Source: a virus
Reading direction: 5' to 3' (one strand)
Length of the DNA: 41,346 bases
UHGV virus genome: UHGV-0007810
Shown here: piece by piece, positions 2,988 through 41,346 of the stretch
Numbering within the stretch: the first letter of the stretch is position 1
How the letters are laid out: the number at the start of each line of letters is the position of its first letter
Position numbers and translations under genes: made by a program
The notes under the pieces: generated by a model
The model's input: only the letters and a program-made list of their open reading frames with translations
Told to the model about the DNA's origin: nothing
Databases searched by the model: none

Positions 2988-3869
2988 TTACATAGATGTT
3001 TCGTTTAATTCTTCCCGACGAACGCTGTAAACGTCGGTGGCTTTTGCCAGCAGTTCGTCATCATCTGAAAGTTTTTGTGCAATATATTTGTAAGCCTTAT
3101 CCAGTTCGGAGACAGTGCTGTAATTCATCGCTGCGCTGGTAAAGGCCATCAGCATTTCTTCTGGCTCACGGCTATCCGCTTTACGCGTTTGCTCATCAGG
3201 CTTTTTCACTGATTTAGCGTTGATCAGACTGTTCATTCCCGCAGCCGTAGTTGTTTGCGGAGTAATGTCTCGCTCAACGCGCGGTGCCGTTTCCTGTAAT
3301 TCGTCAGGGGTGTAAACACCAAGAAGTACATCAGGAGCGTGCAGGCGAGCCCATCGTTTCGTGCAAAGATAGGCAAGTTGCTGGCGCGGATCCTGTTCCC
3401 ACAATGGAGAGTTACGCACTCCGGCTTGCGCCATACTGATGGTAAGCTCACGTGGTTCTGCTTCTCCTTTAAGGACTGCTGACACAGTTACCGTCAGATT
3501 CGGTGATTTATCTGTTTTGCCGTTAACATTCGACCAGTCACCGCTCCAGCGATAATTAAGGCGTGTCGCCAGCAGGCTGGAAGAGGATACGACCGCGTTT
3601 ACCAACTGTGCTTCGTAGCCTAACGTTCCGTTTACCACATGCGTTTTCTGCGCCACGGCGAAAGGGTTCATTCCCCACTGTGCCGCCTGCATGGTCACCG
3701 CCAGACAATCGGCAGGTTTGCCTTCAAGATGTTTCGGTACAGTCGCTTTGCTTTGTGACATCAACTCCGCGAAACGCACCAGTTGATTCATGCCCTCCGG
3801 GCTGAAGATTGCCGCAGCAGTACCTACAGTTGCGCCTGGTTGTGATGTGATTGCGATATCATTGCTCAT
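2988..3869 (-). CDS. RecT-family single-strand annealing recombinase
   Basis: 293 aa; the central region (KPADCLAVTMQAAQWGMNPF...GTLGYEAQL) resembles RecT/Bet-like proteins; start overlaps the stop of the upstream exonuclease gene. Confidence 0.65.
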   Translation of the reverse strand: MSNDIAITSQPGATVGTAAAIFSPEGMNQLVRFAELMSQSKATVPKHLEGKPADCLAVTMQAAQWGMNPFAVAQKTHVVNGTLGYEAQLVNAVVSSSSLLATRLNYRWSGDWSNVNGKTDKSPNLTVTVSAVLKGEAEPRELTISMAQAGVRNSPLWEQDPRQQLAYLCTKRWARLHAPDVLLGVYTPDELQETAPRVERDITPQTTTAAGMNSLINAKSVKKPDEQTRKADSREPEEMLMAFTSAAMNYSTVSELDKAYKYIAQKLSDDDELLAKATDVYSVRREELNETSM

Positions 3870-5157: not shown

Positions 5158-5172
5158 TTACCGTTGAGGTAA
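5158..5172. promoter_or_regulatory. Operator-like palindrome TTACCGTTGAGGTAA
   Basis: Exact TTACC-N5-GGTAA, 20 nt upstream of the first gene of the leftward early operon. Confidence 0.55.
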
Positions 5173-5291: not shown

Positions 5292-5876
5292 TTATTGTTT
5301 GTTTTTTTCGTTCTGGTTGATGACAAATTCAATGTAACTTTCGATCTTTGCTTTCTCGGTTTCGGGTAACAATGCGTAGCGCGAGCGGTCATAGTTGATG
5401 GTCGCAGGGTCGTGCGGGTGAATCAGTAATTCATAGCCGTGACGCCCGAATGCGGATGCAACATTCTCCAGGGTGGAAATGGAAACGCTGACCTCATTGT
5501 TTAACAGGCGACTGATTGTCACCTGGGCGACGCCGGATGCGCGGTGAAGTTTTCCCTGCGTTGAAAGGTCGCGGCTTTCGCTCATCCAGCGTTCCAGGTT
5601 GTGAGCCGCCAGCTGACCAATGTCGCTTGGGCCGACAGGCTGAAAACCTTCCTGAGAAAGCGAGCGATCGATATCAAGCCAGTTACGGGGTTTATTGGCG
5701 GCAGCTTCAATTTTTCGTGCAACCTGGTCGCCGATAACCTTCTTGCCAAGAGCCCAGCGGTTTACCAGATTTGCCTGAGTTCCAAGTTTTTCTGCCATCC
5801 GCGTCTGAACACCATTGAATTCACGGTCGATCAAGTCGTTGAGATTTTGCCTGCGGACGTCCTGGATACTTTTCAT
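5292..5876 (-). CDS. CI-like phage repressor with two helix-turn-helix regions, no LexA-like peptidase domain
   Basis: 194 aa; HTH-like segments near the N-terminus (QTRMAEKLGTQANLVNRW) and the middle (ASGVAQVTISRLLNNE); divergent from the cro-like gene; no G-D-S-M / Ser-Lys cleavage-domain signature seen. Confidence 0.7.
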   Translation of the reverse strand: MKSIQDVRRQNLNDLIDREFNGVQTRMAEKLGTQANLVNRWALGKKVIGDQVARKIEAAANKPRNWLDIDRSLSQEGFQPVGPSDIGQLAAHNLERWMSESRDLSTQGKLHRASGVAQVTISRLLNNEVSVSISTLENVASAFGRHGYELLIHPHDPATINYDRSRYALLPETEKAKIESYIEFVINQNEKNKQ

Positions 5877-31338: not shown

Positions 31339-31884
31339 TTATTCCTTCCATTTATCAGAAAAAAGATCTTCTTCTAAAGGCATTGGTTCTGTTTTTGTTT
31401 TCTCAAAGAATTGATAACTGATAGTGATTGCTGCCTCTTTAAACTCTTCTTGCTCAGTTATGTTGTGGGCATCTGCGTCAACAAAAAACATAACCAGCGC
31501 ATCACGATTGTGATTTACCGAATAAACTAAAAAGCAATTACTTGTTGGTATGCATTTTACTTGCACAGACGCTATTTTTTTCCATGCATCCCAAGATGAT
31601 TTTTTACCAGTGTGTTTTTTATCACTATCTTCTGGAATATAGTCTTGGTTATCGACATGAGTATGCCTGACATTTAGTTTAAGCATTTCTGTCGGACGAG
31701 CAAATGCAGCATCTTTACCAAGAGATGGATGGTATCCCGTTTTCCAATACTGGGTAAAGGCATCAGATACTTTCTTCAGCTCAAGATCAGATGCACAAAG
31801 GGCCGAGAAATTTTGCGTATGCAATACTCGACCCTTATATCTGACAATTTGATTTTTATCATTCTGCGACGCAGACGAACTCAT
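31339..31884 (-). CDS. Hypothetical protein with possible YafO-like toxin domain (AT-rich moron)
   Basis: About 181 aa from ATG 31884 (AAGGAAA 5 nt upstream); visibly AT-rich relative to the surrounding DNA; GYHPSLGKDAAF...VRHTHV...FLVYSV resembles YafO-family toxins as recalled (unverified). Confidence 0.55.
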   Translation of the reverse strand: MSSSASQNDKNQIVRYKGRVLHTQNFSALCASDLELKKVSDAFTQYWKTGYHPSLGKDAAFARPTEMLKLNVRHTHVDNQDYIPEDSDKKHTGKKSSWDAWKKIASVQVKCIPTSNCFLVYSVNHNRDALVMFFVDADAHNITEQEEFKEAAITISYQFFEKTKTEPMPLEEDLFSDKWKE

Positions 31885-32038
31885 AATTTTCCTTATTGTT
31901 ACGAGAATCAAAGAAAGCGCGGGATACGCGACTTGCGTGATCTTTTGTCATAGTAACTTTTACGCACTCTACGCTTCCATTGAAAGAACGTCTTGCGGCA
32001 GCTTGCGCTCTACGCATCTGCAATTTTTCGTTTCGCAT
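31859..32038 (-). CDS. Hypothetical small basic protein (59 aa) upstream of the YafO-like gene
   Basis: Not in the ORF track; hand-translated MRNEKLQMRRAQAAARRSFNGSVECVKVTMTKDHASRVSRAFFDSRNNKENYEFVCVAE; GAGGT Shine-Dalgarno 7 nt upstream; overlaps the downstream gene by 26 nt. Confidence 0.3.
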   Translation of the reverse strand: MRNEKLQMRRAQAAARRSFNGSVECVKVTMTKDHASRVSRAFFDSRNNKENYEFVCVAE

Positions 32039-32098
32039 GACATTACCTCATATCTCATAAGTTCATTACACGGATTAATAAAAATGAAACCAATCCGT

Positions 32099-32113
32099 TT
32101 ACCCTTGAGGTAA
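32099..32113. promoter_or_regulatory. Operator-like palindrome TTACCCTTGAGGTAA
   Basis: Exact; in the promoter region of the leftward small-ORF / YafO-like unit. Confidence 0.55.
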
Positions 32114-32185: not shown

Positions 32186-32881
32186 TCAGAAGAACCCTGC
32201 CTTGTCGTTGATGTACTCCGCGTGCGTCTGGATATCACGCAGGCATTTGCTCACACCGACGATGTAGCAGAACATGGTGGTCAGCTCCGCCGCCGCGCCC
32301 GATACGTCGTGCCCGTCGTCCTGTAACTGGTTCAGCAGATTCATCAGCAGTGAGTTCTCCGTCAGGCCGAGAACACCAGACGGCGAATGAATCAGGCTGC
32401 GGTAGCCGGGCTTCAGTGGGGCACTGTAGGTTTTGTTCTCTATCTTCATCGCCTGCATCACTGCTGATGCTGTGGCGTTGGCTACCTGGTCGGCAACCAT
32501 CTTTATGCGCTCTTCCTGCGGGAGCGAGTTTTTAATGTAACTTCCGGTGCGGCGGATCTGAGGAAGAACCTCACCTGTAACCCATTTACGAAAGCGGTAT
32601 GGGATAGTGCCTGGTGTCACTGCGTCGCGGCAGCGGAGGATCAGTGTGTAGAGGCCTGACTCGGAGATGATGATCGATTCTTGCTCACCGCCAGGGGTGT
32701 CGGTTGAAGCGACGCCCTTCTCATCATCATCAAGTTTTCGAACAGCATCTCGATGGTTTGCTATGCCTATAGCCCGACAAACATCTGAAGCGATAAACCA
32801 TGGCTCACCATTAATGACGATTACTCGTATATCGGCTTGGGATTCGAAAGAAAAAATGGACGTGCTTTTTGTAGCTGTCAT
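32186..32881 (-). CDS. Bro-N domain protein (antirepressor-like), C-terminal domain paralogous to 34029..34286
   Basis: 231 aa; N-terminal FESQADIRVIVINGEPWFIASDVCRAIGIANHRDAVRKL is a classic Bro-N signature; C-terminal ~70 aa align with the small LexA-box gene product. Confidence 0.75.
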   Translation of the reverse strand: MTATKSTSIFSFESQADIRVIVINGEPWFIASDVCRAIGIANHRDAVRKLDDDEKGVASTDTPGGEQESIIISESGLYTLILRCRDAVTPGTIPYRFRKWVTGEVLPQIRRTGSYIKNSLPQEERIKMVADQVANATASAVMQAMKIENKTYSAPLKPGYRSLIHSPSGVLGLTENSLLMNLLNQLQDDGHDVSGAAAELTTMFCYIVGVSKCLRDIQTHAEYINDKAGFF

Positions 32882-33150
32882 AGTGGTTACCTTTTAGTCA
32901 GGTTAATCACCACTACCGACGCCAATCGGTTGGTGGTGAACTGTGCAGGGTTGGCGTAACCGGCTAAAAGGACCCGGCGCACCTTTCGGTGCCCCCACAC
33001 AGCCCACCATAATACGAATGTGGCCGTGCTATACGCATAAAAAAACCGCTTGCGCGGTGAATGCGCCTTTTAGTAATCCGGGACGCCAATCCCGGCACTG
33101 GATTTTGCCAGTGCCCGATTACTATGGCACAAGAGGAGTGCAATGTAAAT

Positions 33151-33165
33151 TTACCGCAAAGGTAA
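33151..33165. promoter_or_regulatory. Operator-like palindrome TTACCGCAAAGGTAA
   Basis: Exact; in the divergent region between the Bro-N gene and the zinc-ribbon gene. Confidence 0.55.
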
Positions 33166-33243
33166 TGATAAACGCGGAGAAATATTAAAATCAACCGCAT
33201 TTGGTTGATTGCGTTTAACGCTTGATCACCTGAAAGCAAGATA

Positions 33244-33258
33244 TTACCTTTAAGGTAA
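33244..33258. promoter_or_regulatory. Operator-like palindrome TTACCTTTAAGGTAA
   Basis: Exact; 20 nt upstream of the ATG at 33279. Confidence 0.55.
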
Positions 33259-33278
33259 TGTTATTGTGAGGAAAAGCA

Positions 33279-34007
33279 ATGGAAGTTTTCTGGATAGTTG
33301 TTGGTGTTGTTACGGTGATTATTTACGTTATCAACCAGAACAGGACTAAGGTCTCTGATCGCACAGTCGTTAATCATCGCAAAACGATAAAGACCGAAGA
33401 TGGAGAAATAACGATTAATCGTACACAGGTGATAGACCACACCTCCACTCAGTTTCAAAAAACTGGAGGTAATGCGCCTAATATTTCCGCACCTCCTGCT
33501 TATGATAGTGCGGTAATCCAGACATATTATAAACAGCAGGAGTTAGCAAAAGAGAGGCAACTGATTCAGCCAAAGCCATTTACAGCAGAGCTTCCACCTG
33601 GAGTGTCAACGCGTCCGGCATATCATGGAAGATTCCCTGGTGATGACATATCGTCTCAGTCATCTAAAAAAGCACCTCAGGCAGTATCAGAGCCAGCAAG
33701 AATACCTTCTGTATCGCCGCCAAAAGAAGAATCAGCTAACAGAGTTTCAAGTGGTAGCAAGCAGTGCTTGCGATGCAGAATAAACCTTCCATATGAAAAA
33801 TTCAGGAAATCGTCAAAAAATCCAGATGGATTGACTAAGTGGTGTGCAAGGTGTCTCGATGGTCCAAAGAATACACGCCATATGAAGTGGTGCCCAATTT
33901 GTAATGTCCGCAGAAAACGAACCAGCTTTTACCCTAATAATCAAAATGCGGATGGCTTAATGGCATGGTGCAAAACGTGCTGGGACGAGCACAAAGCGAA
34001 ACGATAG
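33279..34007 (+). CDS. Membrane-anchored protein with tandem C-x2-C ... WC-x2-C zinc-ribbon-like repeats
   Basis: 242 aa; N-terminal TM helix (FWIVVGVVTVIIYVI), Pro/Ser-rich linker, two repeats CLRCR...DGLTKWCARC and CPICN...DGLMAWCKTC. Confidence 0.6.
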   Translation: MEVFWIVVGVVTVIIYVINQNRTKVSDRTVVNHRKTIKTEDGEITINRTQVIDHTSTQFQKTGGNAPNISAPPAYDSAVIQTYYKQQELAKERQLIQPKPFTAELPPGVSTRPAYHGRFPGDDISSQSSKKAPQAVSEPARIPSVSPPKEESANRVSSGSKQCLRCRINLPYEKFRKSSKNPDGLTKWCARCLDGPKNTRHMKWCPICNVRRKRTSFYPNNQNADGLMAWCKTCWDEHKAKR

Positions 34008-34030
34008 GCCGCTCTAGCGGCCTTTTCTTT
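34006..34030. terminator. Bidirectional terminator-like hairpin between convergent genes
   Basis: AGGCCGC-TCTA-GCGGCCT followed by TTTCTTT. Confidence 0.55.
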
Positions 34031-34286
34031 ATGTGGTTTGTTTTCGTAATTGTTCGGCACAATAGTCGAGATGTGTTTGCAAATCCTGCATAGACATCTG
34101 TGAGCTGGTGACGTAGTTAATCAGTGCAGTCAGTTCGGCAAGTGGGCCATCGACATTAAATCCATCCTTATCGAGATCCCGGAGTAATTTCATCAAGTGC
34201 GATCCCTCCACCAGTGACCTGACGCCTCCCGGCGTGTGAATCCTTTCGGTAAATCCGTCTTCCAGTGGATAGTGATACTGCTGCAT
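34029..34286 (-). CDS. Small protein behind a LexA box (candidate SOS-induced antirepressor)
   Basis: About 85 aa from ATG 34286 (GGAG 8 nt upstream); homologous to the Bro-N protein C-terminus; consensus LexA box 22-37 nt upstream of the start. Confidence 0.6.
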   Translation of the reverse strand: MQQYHYPLEDGFTERIHTPGGVRSLVEGSHLMKLLRDLDKDGFNVDGPLAELTALINYVTSSQMSMQDLQTHLDYCAEQLRKQTT

Positions 34287-34307
34287 CTTATCTTCTCCAT
34301 GCAATAA

Positions 34308-34323
34308 CTGTATATTTATACAG
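34308..34323. promoter_or_regulatory. LexA (SOS) box
   Basis: CTGTATATTTATACAG with flanks AA...TA; matches CTGT-N8-ACAG and the consensus TACTGTATATATATACAGTA at 18 of 20 positions. Confidence 0.7.
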
Positions 34324-34362
34324 TATCAAATAATTTGTTTGCTATCCAGCACGTTTTGCAAA

Positions 34363-34377
34363 TTACCCGAAAGGTAA
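34363..34377. promoter_or_regulatory. Operator-like palindrome TTACCCGAAAGGTAA
   Basis: Exact; between the LexA-box promoter and the tail-fibre gene. Confidence 0.55.
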
Positions 34378-34481
34378 TATCTGTTCATATTCACAGTCTT
34401 TCTATCCATATGTGGTTTTTCAGGTAATAGAATAACCAGATATGCGGCGCAACGGGTGCTGCGACTATCTGGAGATTTAAC

Positions 34482-39381: not shown

Positions 39382-39536
39382 CATGGCATTTTTCATGGTA
39401 CTTATTTCCGGTGACGGTATATAAAACGGTACGAGAAAAATTCATCTTTGGAAAAATGTTATCACTCAATTGGTTATGGTATCCGTAAATAATTGAGTGG
39501 GAATGATTTTGATCCCTGCACTATGAATGAACAAAA

Positions 39537-39562
39537 CCCTCTGTTACTACAGAGGGTTTTTT
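39537..39562. terminator. Rho-independent terminator after the lysis cassette
   Basis: CCCTCTG-TTACTA-CAGAGGG followed by TTTTTT; same stem as the hairpin at 49-68. Confidence 0.65.
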
Positions 39563-39600
39563 ATCTTCAAGAATTATAGGCTTGAAGTTACTTACATCGA

Positions 39601-40140
39601 TTAATTAAACCAGCTGTCCGATTTGTTCTCTTCTGCTTTGCCCACGCTTTTCATCAGATCGCGACCGCCCTCAGTCATATTCCTGTTTGCGTCAGCTTCA
39701 GATTGCACCACATCGGTTTGCGCAGCTTTGTGCTTCAGTTCCTGATCGATAAATTCGTTTTCTCGCTTAACGCGGGCTTCTTCTTTCGCCAGCGCCAGTT
39801 TTTGTTTCTGAATCTCTAAGCTGCGTAGCTCATCTTCATAACTTTGATCGCGTTTTTTGTCCGCAGTGGCTTCGGCGTCCAGTTTATCCTGACGAGCTTT
39901 CTTATTTGCCGCTGCCGTTGCCGCTCTTTTGTTAGCGGCGGCCTGGGCGTTTGCGCGACGTTGCTTCTCTTGCTGGATTTCCCTGTTGCGCTCCGCGACC
40001 CATTCGTCATGCTGCCTTTGCTCTTCATTTTTACCTTGCTGTTCCGCTTCTGCGACAGCAGAGAGTTGATCCTGCAATGATGAGGCGATAGCCGGATAGC
40101 TTAAGGAGGTTAAGATGGCGCAAAGAAAAACTTTCTTCAT
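39601..40140 (-). CDS. Secreted coiled-coil protein (signal peptide)
   Basis: 179 aa; strong Shine-Dalgarno (AGGAGGAG); N-terminal signal peptide; K/E/Q/A-rich mature part. Confidence 0.6.
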   Translation of the reverse strand: MKKVFLCAILTSLSYPAIASSLQDQLSAVAEAEQQGKNEEQRQHDEWVAERNREIQQEKQRRANAQAAANKRAATAAANKKARQDKLDAEATADKKRDQSYEDELRSLEIQKQKLALAKEEARVKRENEFIDQELKHKAAQTDVVQSEADANRNMTEGGRDLMKSVGKAEENKSDSWFN

Positions 40141-40155
40141 GACTCCTCCTGATCA

Positions 40156-40674
40156 TTAGCTCTTTTCAGGACATTTCGTATTTGGCTGAATACGCGTTTC
40201 GTTATACGTCGTGGTAATAACAACGGCTAAACCTGTCGTAAACTGGCACTCTTTACCCACCTGGGTAGAGGTATACACTTTGGTGCCTTCCTTATACGTT
40301 AGAGAAACACCTTCCACTAAGGTTTTATCATTCACCATAGAACCCGCTGCCGCGCCAACAGCTCCGCCGCCAACTGCACCTGCCGTCGTTCCGGAATTGC
40401 TGCCAGACCCCACGTTGTGGCCGATTACACCGCCAGCGACTGCACCAATAAGCGCGCCGAAGGCTTGTGCGTTCCGTTTATTTTGGGAGTTGTCTACGGC
40501 AACTTTTGCGGGAAGAATGGAAATAATATTAACGGTTTTAGTTTCTTGTTTGGTATTCAGTTGATCGGTTTGATAAACATCGGCGGCATGATCATCAGCA
40601 TTTGACTGGCATCCTGCCAGAGTGAATGACGCTAACATTGCCACAGGCAGAAGACATTTTTTAAATTTCATCAC
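40156..40674 (-). CDS. Outer-membrane lipoprotein with glycine-zipper domain (YcfJ/SlyB-like)
   Basis: 172 aa; lipobox LAGC; GALIGAVAGGVIGHNVG glycine-zipper motif; AT-rich promoter region upstream (40680-40860). Confidence 0.65.
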   Translation of the reverse strand: MMKFKKCLLPVAMLASFTLAGCQSNADDHAADVYQTDQLNTKQETKTVNIISILPAKVAVDNSQNKRNAQAFGALIGAVAGGVIGHNVGSGSNSGTTAGAVGGGAVGAAAGSMVNDKTLVEGVSLTYKEGTKVYTSTQVGKECQFTTGLAVVITTTYNETRIQPNTKCPEKS

Positions 40675-41346
40675 TATTCCTTGTTATACACATTACTAAA
40701 AATAAGACATTTAAGATCATCAAAAGAAGAAAGTAAATGTATTGCGTATAAAGGAATAGATTAAATTTATTAAAATTCATGTGGGAAATAATTTATAAAA
40801 ATACATCATTAAAATATATGTATTAATTTTATATTTATTTCGCAGCCAAACAGGATAAACATCTGTCAGGACAAAGACGTAAAATTTAAGATGAAAGAAT
40901 ATCTGCCGCTTTGATAATCCCAAAGAGCAAAAGCATCCGACAGCGAGGTGCCGTTATGTTCTGTGAAAGTGGAGAAGGTAACCGCTAACGTTGTACCGGT
41001 GATTCGACGGAGAGTGTGGATTGCTGAGCTTCTTTTTTGCTCTGATGGTGCTGCCATGCACCGACGGACGAGTAGATAAAACGGCCAAAGAAGAAGATAA
41101 AGCTGATGAGCAGTACGATACGGGTCATGCGACTGTTAAATCGGTGTCGTTTTCGCATACTGGTTGCCTGACTCACAAAAGGTTCCTTGAAGTATGTCCC
41201 ACGCTGTGGACGGTACTTACATTAAGGCACAACAGGACAAAATGGTCAATTCTTCGTTATGTAAAAAAGCGTCAGTGGATACATATTTTAATGTTATGGA
41301 AGTTAATTTAATTATTTACAATGATGATGTAATAATGATGAATTAA

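Follow-up and report, generated by a model that had tools for sequence, protein, structure and literature searches.

The closest described relative of the system treated here is the Rep/Ant pair of Salmonella phage SPC32H (PDB 5D50 and 5D4Z), in which self-cleavage of LexA leads to production of the small protein Ant and Ant inhibits the phage repressor by protein-protein contact, a mechanism that a review credits to Kim and Ryu, 2013 (PMC7380047). According to a further study, Rep binds DNA as a tetramer, which is broken up by an Ant tetramer that takes hold of two Rep dimers (PMC9638917); the deposited structure 5D50 contains eight Rep and eight Ant chains in a 1:1 ratio. Here we describe the corresponding locus in the virus genome UHGV-0007810, a stretch of 41,346 nucleotides (nt) hereafter termed the window, where a gene for a protein of 85 amino acids (aa), ant, lies behind a LexA box and the same protein domain recurs at the C-terminus of a larger Bro-N protein. 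We consider it very likely that this locus is the SOS sensor of a temperate phage working like Rep/Ant of SPC32H, and that the Bro-N fusion is a second copy controlled by C4 and isrK RNAs, most likely a non-SOS antirepressor. The LexA-Ant-Rep system as such is not new, its mechanism being published for the close relative SPC32H. What is added here is an unannotated ant in E. coli prophages, the presence of the SPC32H Ant domain in a Bro-N “antirepressor”, and evidence for control of the second copy by a co-varying C4 RNA instead of LexA.

Antirepressor genes located outside the immunity region and repressed directly by LexA are also known from phage 186 (Tum), phage N15 (AntC) and the Gifsy prophages (GfoA, GfhA and GftA) (PMC3121763), and there, as proposed for the window, a small protein inactivates a non-cleavable repressor by binding to it. 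An initial annotation of the window, made from the sequence without database searches, had drawn the parallel to 186 Tum and the Gifsy-type systems; these hold as functional analogues, but the closest known system is SPC32H Ant. Homology of Ant to Tum, AntC or the Gifsy antirepressors was not found, in that no Pfam or NCBIfam model matched, that of DinI included, and a profile search returned only a narrow family, Tum and GfoA not having been compared with Ant pair by pair. Tum carries a DinI-like half, and the Gifsy antirepressors are reported to form A2B2 complexes with their repressors (PMC3121763), as opposed to the Ant tetramer with two Rep dimers reported for SPC32H (PMC9638917).

Similarity identifies the window as a prophage of E. 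coli of the epsilon15/phiV10-like (Uetakevirus) type: over the 2.7 kb surrounding the locus, it shares 97.5% identity with Escherichia phage TL-2011b and 96-98% with phiV10, vB_EcoP_ZX5 (hereafter ZX5) and other Uetakevirus (epsilon15-like) phages. The attachment core known for ZX5, phiV10 and epsilon15, which integrate at the 3′ end of guaA (PMC9782041), is present in a single copy (ATTGAGTGGGAATGATT, 39492-39508), and the window is therefore read as an integrated prophage with a host flank at the right: the core is the right prophage end, 39509-41346 is host DNA, and the left copy would sit just beyond position 1. At least 80% of the 2.3-kb module is found in 112 of 5,426 complete E. coli genomes.

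The small gene proposed by the initial annotation is complete, with an ATG at 34286, a Shine-Dalgarno sequence GGAGA at 34294-34298, a stop codon at 34029 and a product of the expected length. Residues 2-85 of this product match chain E of PDB 5D50 (“Anti-repressor protein”) with an expect (E) value of 1.3e-47, identity to SPC32H Ant is about 88% by tblastn, and the gene occupies the place of the annotated SPC32H ant, after the block of virion genes and in divergent orientation to the tailspike gene. The 85-aa gene is, on this evidence, the orthologue of SPC32H ant, and the LexA-Ant-Rep part of the locus belongs to the SPC32H system by every criterion that can be tested on sequence. A LexA-antirepressor mechanism is implied for the window because of this orthology to a characterised Rep/Ant system. 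In nearly every E. coli genome and phage record, that of ZX5 included, the gene is entered as a “hypothetical protein”, and its PHROGs family (phrog_450) is labelled “unknown function”; it can confidently be annotated as an SOS-controlled antirepressor.

The near-consensus LexA box reported ahead of ant proved to be the top site of the window. Its 20-mer (34306-34325) scores 27.4 bits, above the training sites (12.7-26.6), the best of 100 shuffles (22.0) and the runner-up in the window (11.9), on a position weight matrix that is approximate, the training set being E. coli SOS boxes from the literature. The window holds four instances of the pattern CTGT-N8-ACAG, where 0.53 would be expected. 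The box stops 21 nt short of the ant ATG, a distance that is exact in E. coli, Salmonella, Enterobacter, Klebsiella, Scandinavium, Pluralibacter and Yersinia-labelled contigs. A LexA-type box is kept at this distance ahead of free-Ant genes at 67-75% identity (Scandinavium, Pluralibacter and metagenome contigs), as well as ahead of a close Ant homologue (96%) in a Yersinia-labelled assembly. When the region upstream of ant was aligned among nine phages of E. coli, Salmonella, Enterobacter and Klebsiella (mean identity 77%), the CTGT and ATACAG halves were unchanged in eight of the nine and the central spacer was variable. LexA is predicted to bind at this box. The same alignment suggests an ant promoter of the form TGGATA-17-(TG)a-TACTGT whose -10 overlaps the box, the blocks CTGGA.A and T.TG.TA being invariant or nearly so. 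A second CTGT-N8-ACAG further upstream (CTGTTCATATTCACAG), to which the initial annotation did not refer, was considered and rejected as a functional site; its 11.9 bits equal chance (shuffle median 11.4), its left half is missing in phiV10 and TL-2011b, and it is unconserved even in relatives that are 96% identical.

The repressor was expected from the initial annotation to show no signature of LexA-like self-cleavage, and this agrees with what is found in Rep of the window, a protein of 194 aa that matches chain A of PDB 5D50 (“Repressor”; E = 4e-42). Its Pfam domains are of the helix-turn-helix (HTH) type only, no Peptidase_S24 domain appeared in the Pfam scan, and the whole sequence contains no Ala-Gly or Cys-Gly dipeptide; a cleavable domain, the discovery of which the initial annotation had counted against its own proposal, was looked for in this protein and none was found. 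The likely operators of Rep are copies of the palindrome TTACC-N5-GGTAA, of which the window holds 17 (at most one mismatch) against 0.77 expected, a roughly 20-fold excess, nearly all of them intergenic. They span positions 136-37722 (for example 5158, 5220, 5932, 5980, 8263, 8325, 11316, 14476, 32099, 33151, 33244 and 34363). Those at 5158, 5220, 5932 and 5980 flank rep and its divergent neighbour, rep of SPC32H is surrounded by the same motif, and equivalent palindromes are annotated “repressor; lysogeny” in the epsilon15 record; binding of Rep to this motif is predicted on that basis.

Two of the palindromes lie next to the promoters that matter here. One (TTACCCGAAAGGTAA), upstream of the ant promoter, is unchanged in all relatives and lies 75-76 nt from the ant ATG, and its epsilon15 counterpart is among the sites annotated “repressor; lysogeny”; the other (TTACCGCAAAGGTAA), upstream of the Bro-N gene, is kept in phiV10, Tyrion, a Klebsiella prophage and phiv142-3. 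Rep may therefore also act on the ant and isrK/C4/Bro-N promoters, which would give positive feedback once Ant is made. As a separate observation, the motif precedes nearly every transcription unit, virion and tailspike genes included, and is not confined to the surroundings of rep; if all these palindromes are Rep operators, repression would be far more spread out than in lambda. Compared with SPC32H, the window shares an orthologous Ant, a homologous Rep, the gene position, the LexA box 21 nt from the ATG, and TTACC-N5-GGTAA palindromes around rep and upstream of ant. It differs in its host, here E. coli, in a Rep that is just 42% identical, and in possessing a Bro-N fusion and an isrK/C4 leader (an Rfam scan of SPC32H, which has no Bro-N gene, did not find the isrK and C4 RNAs).

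Taken together, the proposed sequence of events is as follows. In the lysogen, host LexA would occupy the box, overlapping the extended -10 and start of the ant promoter, and keep ant silent; Rep, with its two HTH-type domains and unable to cleave itself, would hold the phage promoters via the TTACC-N5-GGTAA operators. Upon DNA damage, RecA would be activated, LexA would cleave itself and ant would be transcribed, whereupon the 85-aa Ant would bind Rep and free the operators, with derepression of the lytic genes. Binding of Ant to Rep, release of Rep and SOS-dependent induction are what homology to SPC32H predicts for this phage. The proposal with which the work started, that a LexA-repressed small antirepressor acts against a non-cleavable repressor, is supported by the Ant/Rep orthology to SPC32H, the synteny and the fixed distance of the box.

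The second copy of the domain resides in the Bro-N protein. A tblastn search with Ant recovered two copies in the window, ant itself and the fusion gene, and no third. The Bro-N domain (PF02498) covers residues 17-107 of the fusion (nt 32561-32833; 76.7 bits against a gathering score of 25.6; E = 2e-21), and the Ant-like domain covers residues 150-226 (nt 32204-32434) and matches 5D50 chain E at E = 2e-13. The paralogy of the small protein and the Bro-N C-terminus, noticed at the outset from a few shared blocks, is borne out by pairwise alignment: residues 2-75 of Ant align without gaps to residues 150-223 of the fusion at 42% identity (E = 2e-15), and the blocks IH[TS]P.G, AELT and D[LI]QTH..Y are all present. 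The initial annotation was right that the same effector domain is shared with a Bro-N fusion, but it missed that the fusion gene stands outside the control of the LexA box and has its own promoter and an isrK/C4 leader. Direct LexA control of the Bro-N gene was ruled out, as no CTGT-N8-ACAG lies near its promoter or leader. The fusion is identical at 230 of 231 positions to ORF4 of ZX5, annotated as “anti-repressor”, whose overexpression during infection lowered lysogens about 1000-fold (from ~10^9 to 10^6 per mL) and cut transcription of the repressor by 75% (PMC9782041); the same paper makes no mention of LexA, SPC32H, the small Ant, the Ant-like C-terminal domain or the isrK/C4 leader.

In the leader of the fusion gene, the -10 of a promoter-like site and a TTGTGCCATAGT block are invariant among aligned relatives. 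The first product would be an isrK-like small RNA (sRNA), which contains the elements b1, UUGGCGU (33083-33089), and a1, CUAAAAGG (33066-33073), and ends in a terminator hairpin with U7 (33039-33058); the family c4-a1b1 (RF03163) scores 45.1 bits at 33075-33127, just below its gathering score of 46.7. It is followed by a C4 antisense RNA, and the pair of isrK and C4 is also present upstream of the orthologous fusion gene in TL-2011b, phiV10 and Tyrion. The C4 loops CCUUUUAG (a′) and ACGCCAA (b′) are exactly complementary to CUAAAAGG and UUGGCGU, both at a1/b1 and at a second set, a2/b2, in the 5′ untranslated region (UTR) of the fusion gene, with matches of 7-9 nt. Element a2 spans the Bro-N gene's own Shine-Dalgarno sequence and precedes the AUG by 8 nt (8-10 nt across lineages).

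The loops and both sets of targets co-vary in four lineages, with the a′/a2 pairs CCUUUUAG/CUAAAAGG, CCUUUGUAG/CUACAAAGG, CCGUUUAG/CUAAGCGG and CCACUUAG/CUAAGUGG, and the b′/b pairs ACGCCAA/UUGGCGU and AGACCAA/UUGGUCU. This argument is based on the explicit loop and target segments and not on duplex energies; RNAduplex gives -33.8 for the cognate C4/UTR pair of the window, within about 1.2 standard deviations of shuffles, and the energies are dominated by a conserved GGUGGUGA/UCACCACC stem. The read-through leader (32879-33114, minus strand) has a minimum free energy of -104.3 kcal/mol (z = -5.3 against shuffles), with a1/b1 paired in cis with the C4 loops, and this predicted fold agrees with a precursor that keeps C4 masked until processing or until production of the short IsrK-like RNA. 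An Rfam match to mir-1175 in the same scan (E = 0.28) is noise.

The arrangement recalls the immI locus of phages P1 and P7 (c4, icd-ant; RF01695 and RF03163), which likewise has a C4 RNA with a1/b1 upstream and a2/b2 downstream, a2 placed over a ribosome-binding site, and an antirepressor gene downstream; the lineage-specific loop/target pairs also resemble the difference in specificity between P1 and P7. Unlike immI, the window has no icd-like open reading frame (ORF) between C4 and the Bro-N start codon, a2 lies on the antirepressor gene's own Shine-Dalgarno sequence, an IsrK-type terminator stands between a1b1 and C4, and the protein carries an SPC32H Ant-like C-terminal domain. Such a terminator is known from the isrK-orf45(STnc1160)-anrP locus of Gifsy-1, where it is leaky and the read-through transcript encodes AnrP, an antirepressor and prophage inducer (PMC4825925). 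Both loci match isrK, and in both an sRNA whose terminator is leaky precedes a structured RNA region and an antirepressor-like gene; in Gifsy-1, however, IsrK activates translation via coupling to orf45, with no equivalent coupled ORF evident here, and the downstream effect passes via AntQ (PMC4825925). As judged from these comparisons, control of the fusion has the architecture of P1/P7 immI minus the icd-like ORF and plus an IsrK-type leaky terminator. Two antirepressors in one phage are also found in N15, which has the SOS-controlled antC and an anti-immunity locus, immA (antA-icd-antB), under a small processed RNA (PMC4488713). The N15 proteins are unrelated to those of the window as far as tested, and no domain common to its two antirepressors is reported, whereas those of the window are paralogous.

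For the fusion gene we accordingly picture its own promoter, beside a Rep-operator-like palindrome, with a leader that would yield two RNAs, an IsrK-like sRNA and the antisense RNA C4; the loops of C4 would pair with the ribosome-binding site of the fusion, and translation is predicted to be blocked as for ant of P1/P7. The fusion would most likely serve as a non-SOS antirepressor, for anti-immunity or reinforcement when Rep control lapses or upon infection, a role that we infer for this phage. Whether one Rep-binding domain of defined structure, the SPC32H Ant fold, really serves this phage in two forms, each with an independent sensor, LexA for the free form and IsrK/C4 for the Bro-N fusion, appears to us an even bet.

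Free or fused, the Ant domain occurs in 32-35 records of the phage collection, which are those of this lineage and a few Klebsiella prophages, and every such record with a fusion also has a free Ant. A word-indexed search gave 132 Ant clusters, nearly all of 85-86 aa, from Enterobacterales and named “hypothetical protein”, and an exhaustive profile search of 1.84 billion protein representatives gave 63 matches at E <= 1e-3. Every longer protein among these profile matches has the Ant domain at its C-terminus, and the N-terminal partners of the domain are Bro-N, AntA, Phage_pRha and ORF6N. Sixteen invariant positions are common to free and fused copies, and a segment DGHDVSGAAAEL is common to fused copies and the Klebsiella-type free Ant. 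A match of Ant to DUF724 is noise (17.6 bits against a cutoff of 38.4). As far as we have found, the link between the Ant domain and the C-termini of Bro/Rha-type antirepressors appears undescribed; the ZX5 paper is silent on it, and the domain is unnamed in Pfam, NCBIfam and PHROGs.

Several points weigh against our reading of the locus as a whole. The generic sigma-70 promoter scan called no promoter for ant, and in the Klebsiella, the Pluralibacter and some metagenomic lineages the distal half-site of the box has ATGT (TATATGTATATATATACAGTA) in place of CTGT. With a Rep-operator-like palindrome lying upstream of it, ant may not be controlled by LexA alone. Identity to the SPC32H protein is only 42% for Rep and 37% for its C-terminal domain, against 88% for Ant, so that the compatibility of Ant with Rep is a matter of prediction in this phage. 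ZX5 shows high spontaneous induction, and the tests of that study covered neither the SOS response nor the small gene (PMC9782041). In phiV10 (3012-3691), a 16-nt deletion at codons 181-186 (32325-32340 of the window) shifts the frame of the fusion, and most of the Ant-like domain is lost, the record annotating a 194-aa protein and a 29-aa ORF at this place; as phiV10 is viable with this truncation, at least one phage can do without the fusion. As a side observation on the box, the ATGT variant renders the overlapping -10 more TATAAT-like, and repression strength may have been exchanged there for promoter strength.

The reading that survives best beside ours takes the Bro-N::Ant fusion as the antirepressor that matters, with the small LexA-controlled protein mainly modulating it, for instance in mixed oligomers via the Ant domain. 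The sole experiment in the E. coli branch concerns the fusion (ZX5 ORF4), Ant of SPC32H is oligomeric in the study cited above (PMC9638917), and the invariant positions shared by both proteins together with the free Ant in every record that has a fusion would suit such a partnership. We nevertheless find it unlikely, since SPC32H, epsilon15 and many relatives have a free Ant only and keep its LexA box, since the fusion of phiV10 is truncated, and since the free Ant (88%) is more conserved than the rest of the module.

Still less probable is that the small Ant has drifted away from the Rep of this phage and is uncoupled, or aimed at the repressors of co-resident prophages, induction taking another route. 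Ant reportedly contacts the C-terminal domains of Rep, and it is the C-terminal domain of Rep, at 37%, that sets the contrast with the 88% of Ant; cross-acting antirepressors (Gifsy/Fels) are documented in Salmonella (PMC3121763), and the high spontaneous induction of ZX5 (PMC9782041) points the same way. Against such drift, the geometry of Ant, LexA box and operator is strictly kept in every lineage with this Rep family, homologues of Ant are limited to this lineage (63 representatives in the 1.84 billion proteins), and the window has no alternative SOS element, lacking both a cleavable repressor and any further strong LexA box. That the palindrome ahead of ant is no LexA operator, and instead a chance AT-rich palindrome or the site of a phage factor for the divergent tailspike gene, is hardly credible, for although the region is AT-rich, a phage-specific palindrome family abounds in the window and some relatives have an ATGT half-site, the score tops all genuine E. 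coli SOS boxes of the training set and all shuffles, invariance is restricted to the LexA-contact halves around a variable spacer, the tailspike ATG is 159 nt away against 21 nt for that of ant, and the orthologous SPC32H gene is reported as LexA-controlled in the review (PMC7380047).

Further features were noted beside this circuit, whose parts are listed in Table 1. A 242-aa ORF is inserted between ant and the isrK promoter and is missing at that spot in phiV10, ZX5 and a Klebsiella prophage; in the TL-2011b annotation it is a misc_feature only. It has, by eye, a hydrophobic N-terminal segment, as well as Cys-rich CxxC zinc-ribbon repeats at the C-terminus, and an operator-like palindrome (33244-33258) lies about 20 nt upstream. 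Upstream of the tailspike gene, a block at 34404-34435 is invariant in nine of nine relatives (minus strand TCTATTACC...AACC..ATATG.A; plus strand T.CATAT..GGTT...GGTAATAGA); it holds a GGTAAT half-site and a TAGAAT -10-like hexamer and is possibly a tailspike promoter with a half-operator. On the other side of the fusion gene, 31339-32113 (minus strand) encodes a YafO-like toxin ORF of 190 aa (Pfam YafO_toxin, 23.2 bits, just below the cutoff) overlapping a 59-aa ORF (phrog_6685), with an operator-like palindrome (32099-32113) upstream; the two may form a toxin-antitoxin pair carried as a moron beside the antirepressor module. TL-2011b has a third antirepressor module at 1027-2211, missing from the window, with an Arc-like repressor, a P22-type Ant (314 aa) and, within it, a sar antisense RNA (1198-1265; Rfam, 44.8 bits). 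A tblastn search with Ant hit three places in the TL-2011b genome; from these and the third module it follows that one phage can combine LexA-, C4- and sar/Arc-controlled antirepressors.

Table 1. Features of the antirepressor locus and of rep in the window, with the evidence for each.
Feature	Positions	Strand	Evidence
rep, 194-aa non-cleavable repressor, predicted target of Ant	5292..5876	-	5D50_A match; no S24 domain; no AG/CG dipeptide
Fusion antirepressor, 231 aa: Bro-N and Ant-like C-terminal domain	32186..32881	-	Pfam; Ant and 5D50_E matches; ZX5 ORF4
C4 targets in the fusion 5′ UTR: b2 UUGGCGU (32919-32925), a2 CUAAAAGG (32890-32897)	32890..32925	-	Exact complementarity and compensatory changes
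C4 antisense RNA; loops a′ CCUUUUAG (32964-32971), b′ ACGCCAA (32951-32957)	32929..33014	-	Rfam RF01695, 77.7 bits (gathering 45)
isrK-like sRNA	33039..33114	-	Rfam RF01394, 77.9 bits (gathering 50)
Promoter-like site TTTACA-17-CATAGT, TG before -10, for the isrK/C4/Bro-N transcript	33121..33149	-	Promoter scan
Palindrome TTACCGCAAAGGTAA, predicted Rep operator	33151..33165		One base from the -35 of the isrK/C4/Bro-N promoter
Inserted 242-aa ORF, outside the antirepressor circuit	33279..34007	+	phrog_6762, E = 2e-149; weak EndoVII/Lar-like and Stc1 matches
Stem-loop terminator between the 242-aa ORF and the ant 3′ end	34006..34023	+	7-bp stem with 6 GC pairs; T-run on + strand
ant, 85-aa antirepressor, SPC32H Ant orthologue	34029..34286	-	5D50_E match; synteny; phrog_450
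LexA (SOS) box CTGTATATTTATACAG	34308..34323		LexA matrix score; conserved halves and spacing; overlaps the -10/+1 predicted for ant
Predicted ant promoter: -35 TGGATA (34343-34348), 17-nt spacer, extended -10 TGaTACTGT (34320-34328)	34320..34348	-	Conserved blocks only
Palindrome TTACCCGAAAGGTAA between ant and the tailspike gene, upstream of the ant promoter; predicted Rep operator	34363..34377		Motif excess and conservation
Second CTGT-N8-ACAG CTGTTCATATTCACAG, probably fortuitous	34381..34396		11.9 bits; missing in phiV10 and TL-2011b

If the reading of one domain under two sensors is true, these podoviruses would possess a second, P1-like “immI” immunity layer with a loop/target specificity that co-varies between lineages. 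Ant would then be a shuffled C-terminal module, and the C-terminal half of one class of the poorly understood Bro/Rha-type “antirepressors” would gain a concrete function, namely the capture of a repressor. PhiV10-like phages alter the O-antigen of pathogenic E. coli and have found use in typing and as reporters, and induction via LexA, Ant and Rep instead of repressor cleavage would tell how such phages can be stabilised or triggered.

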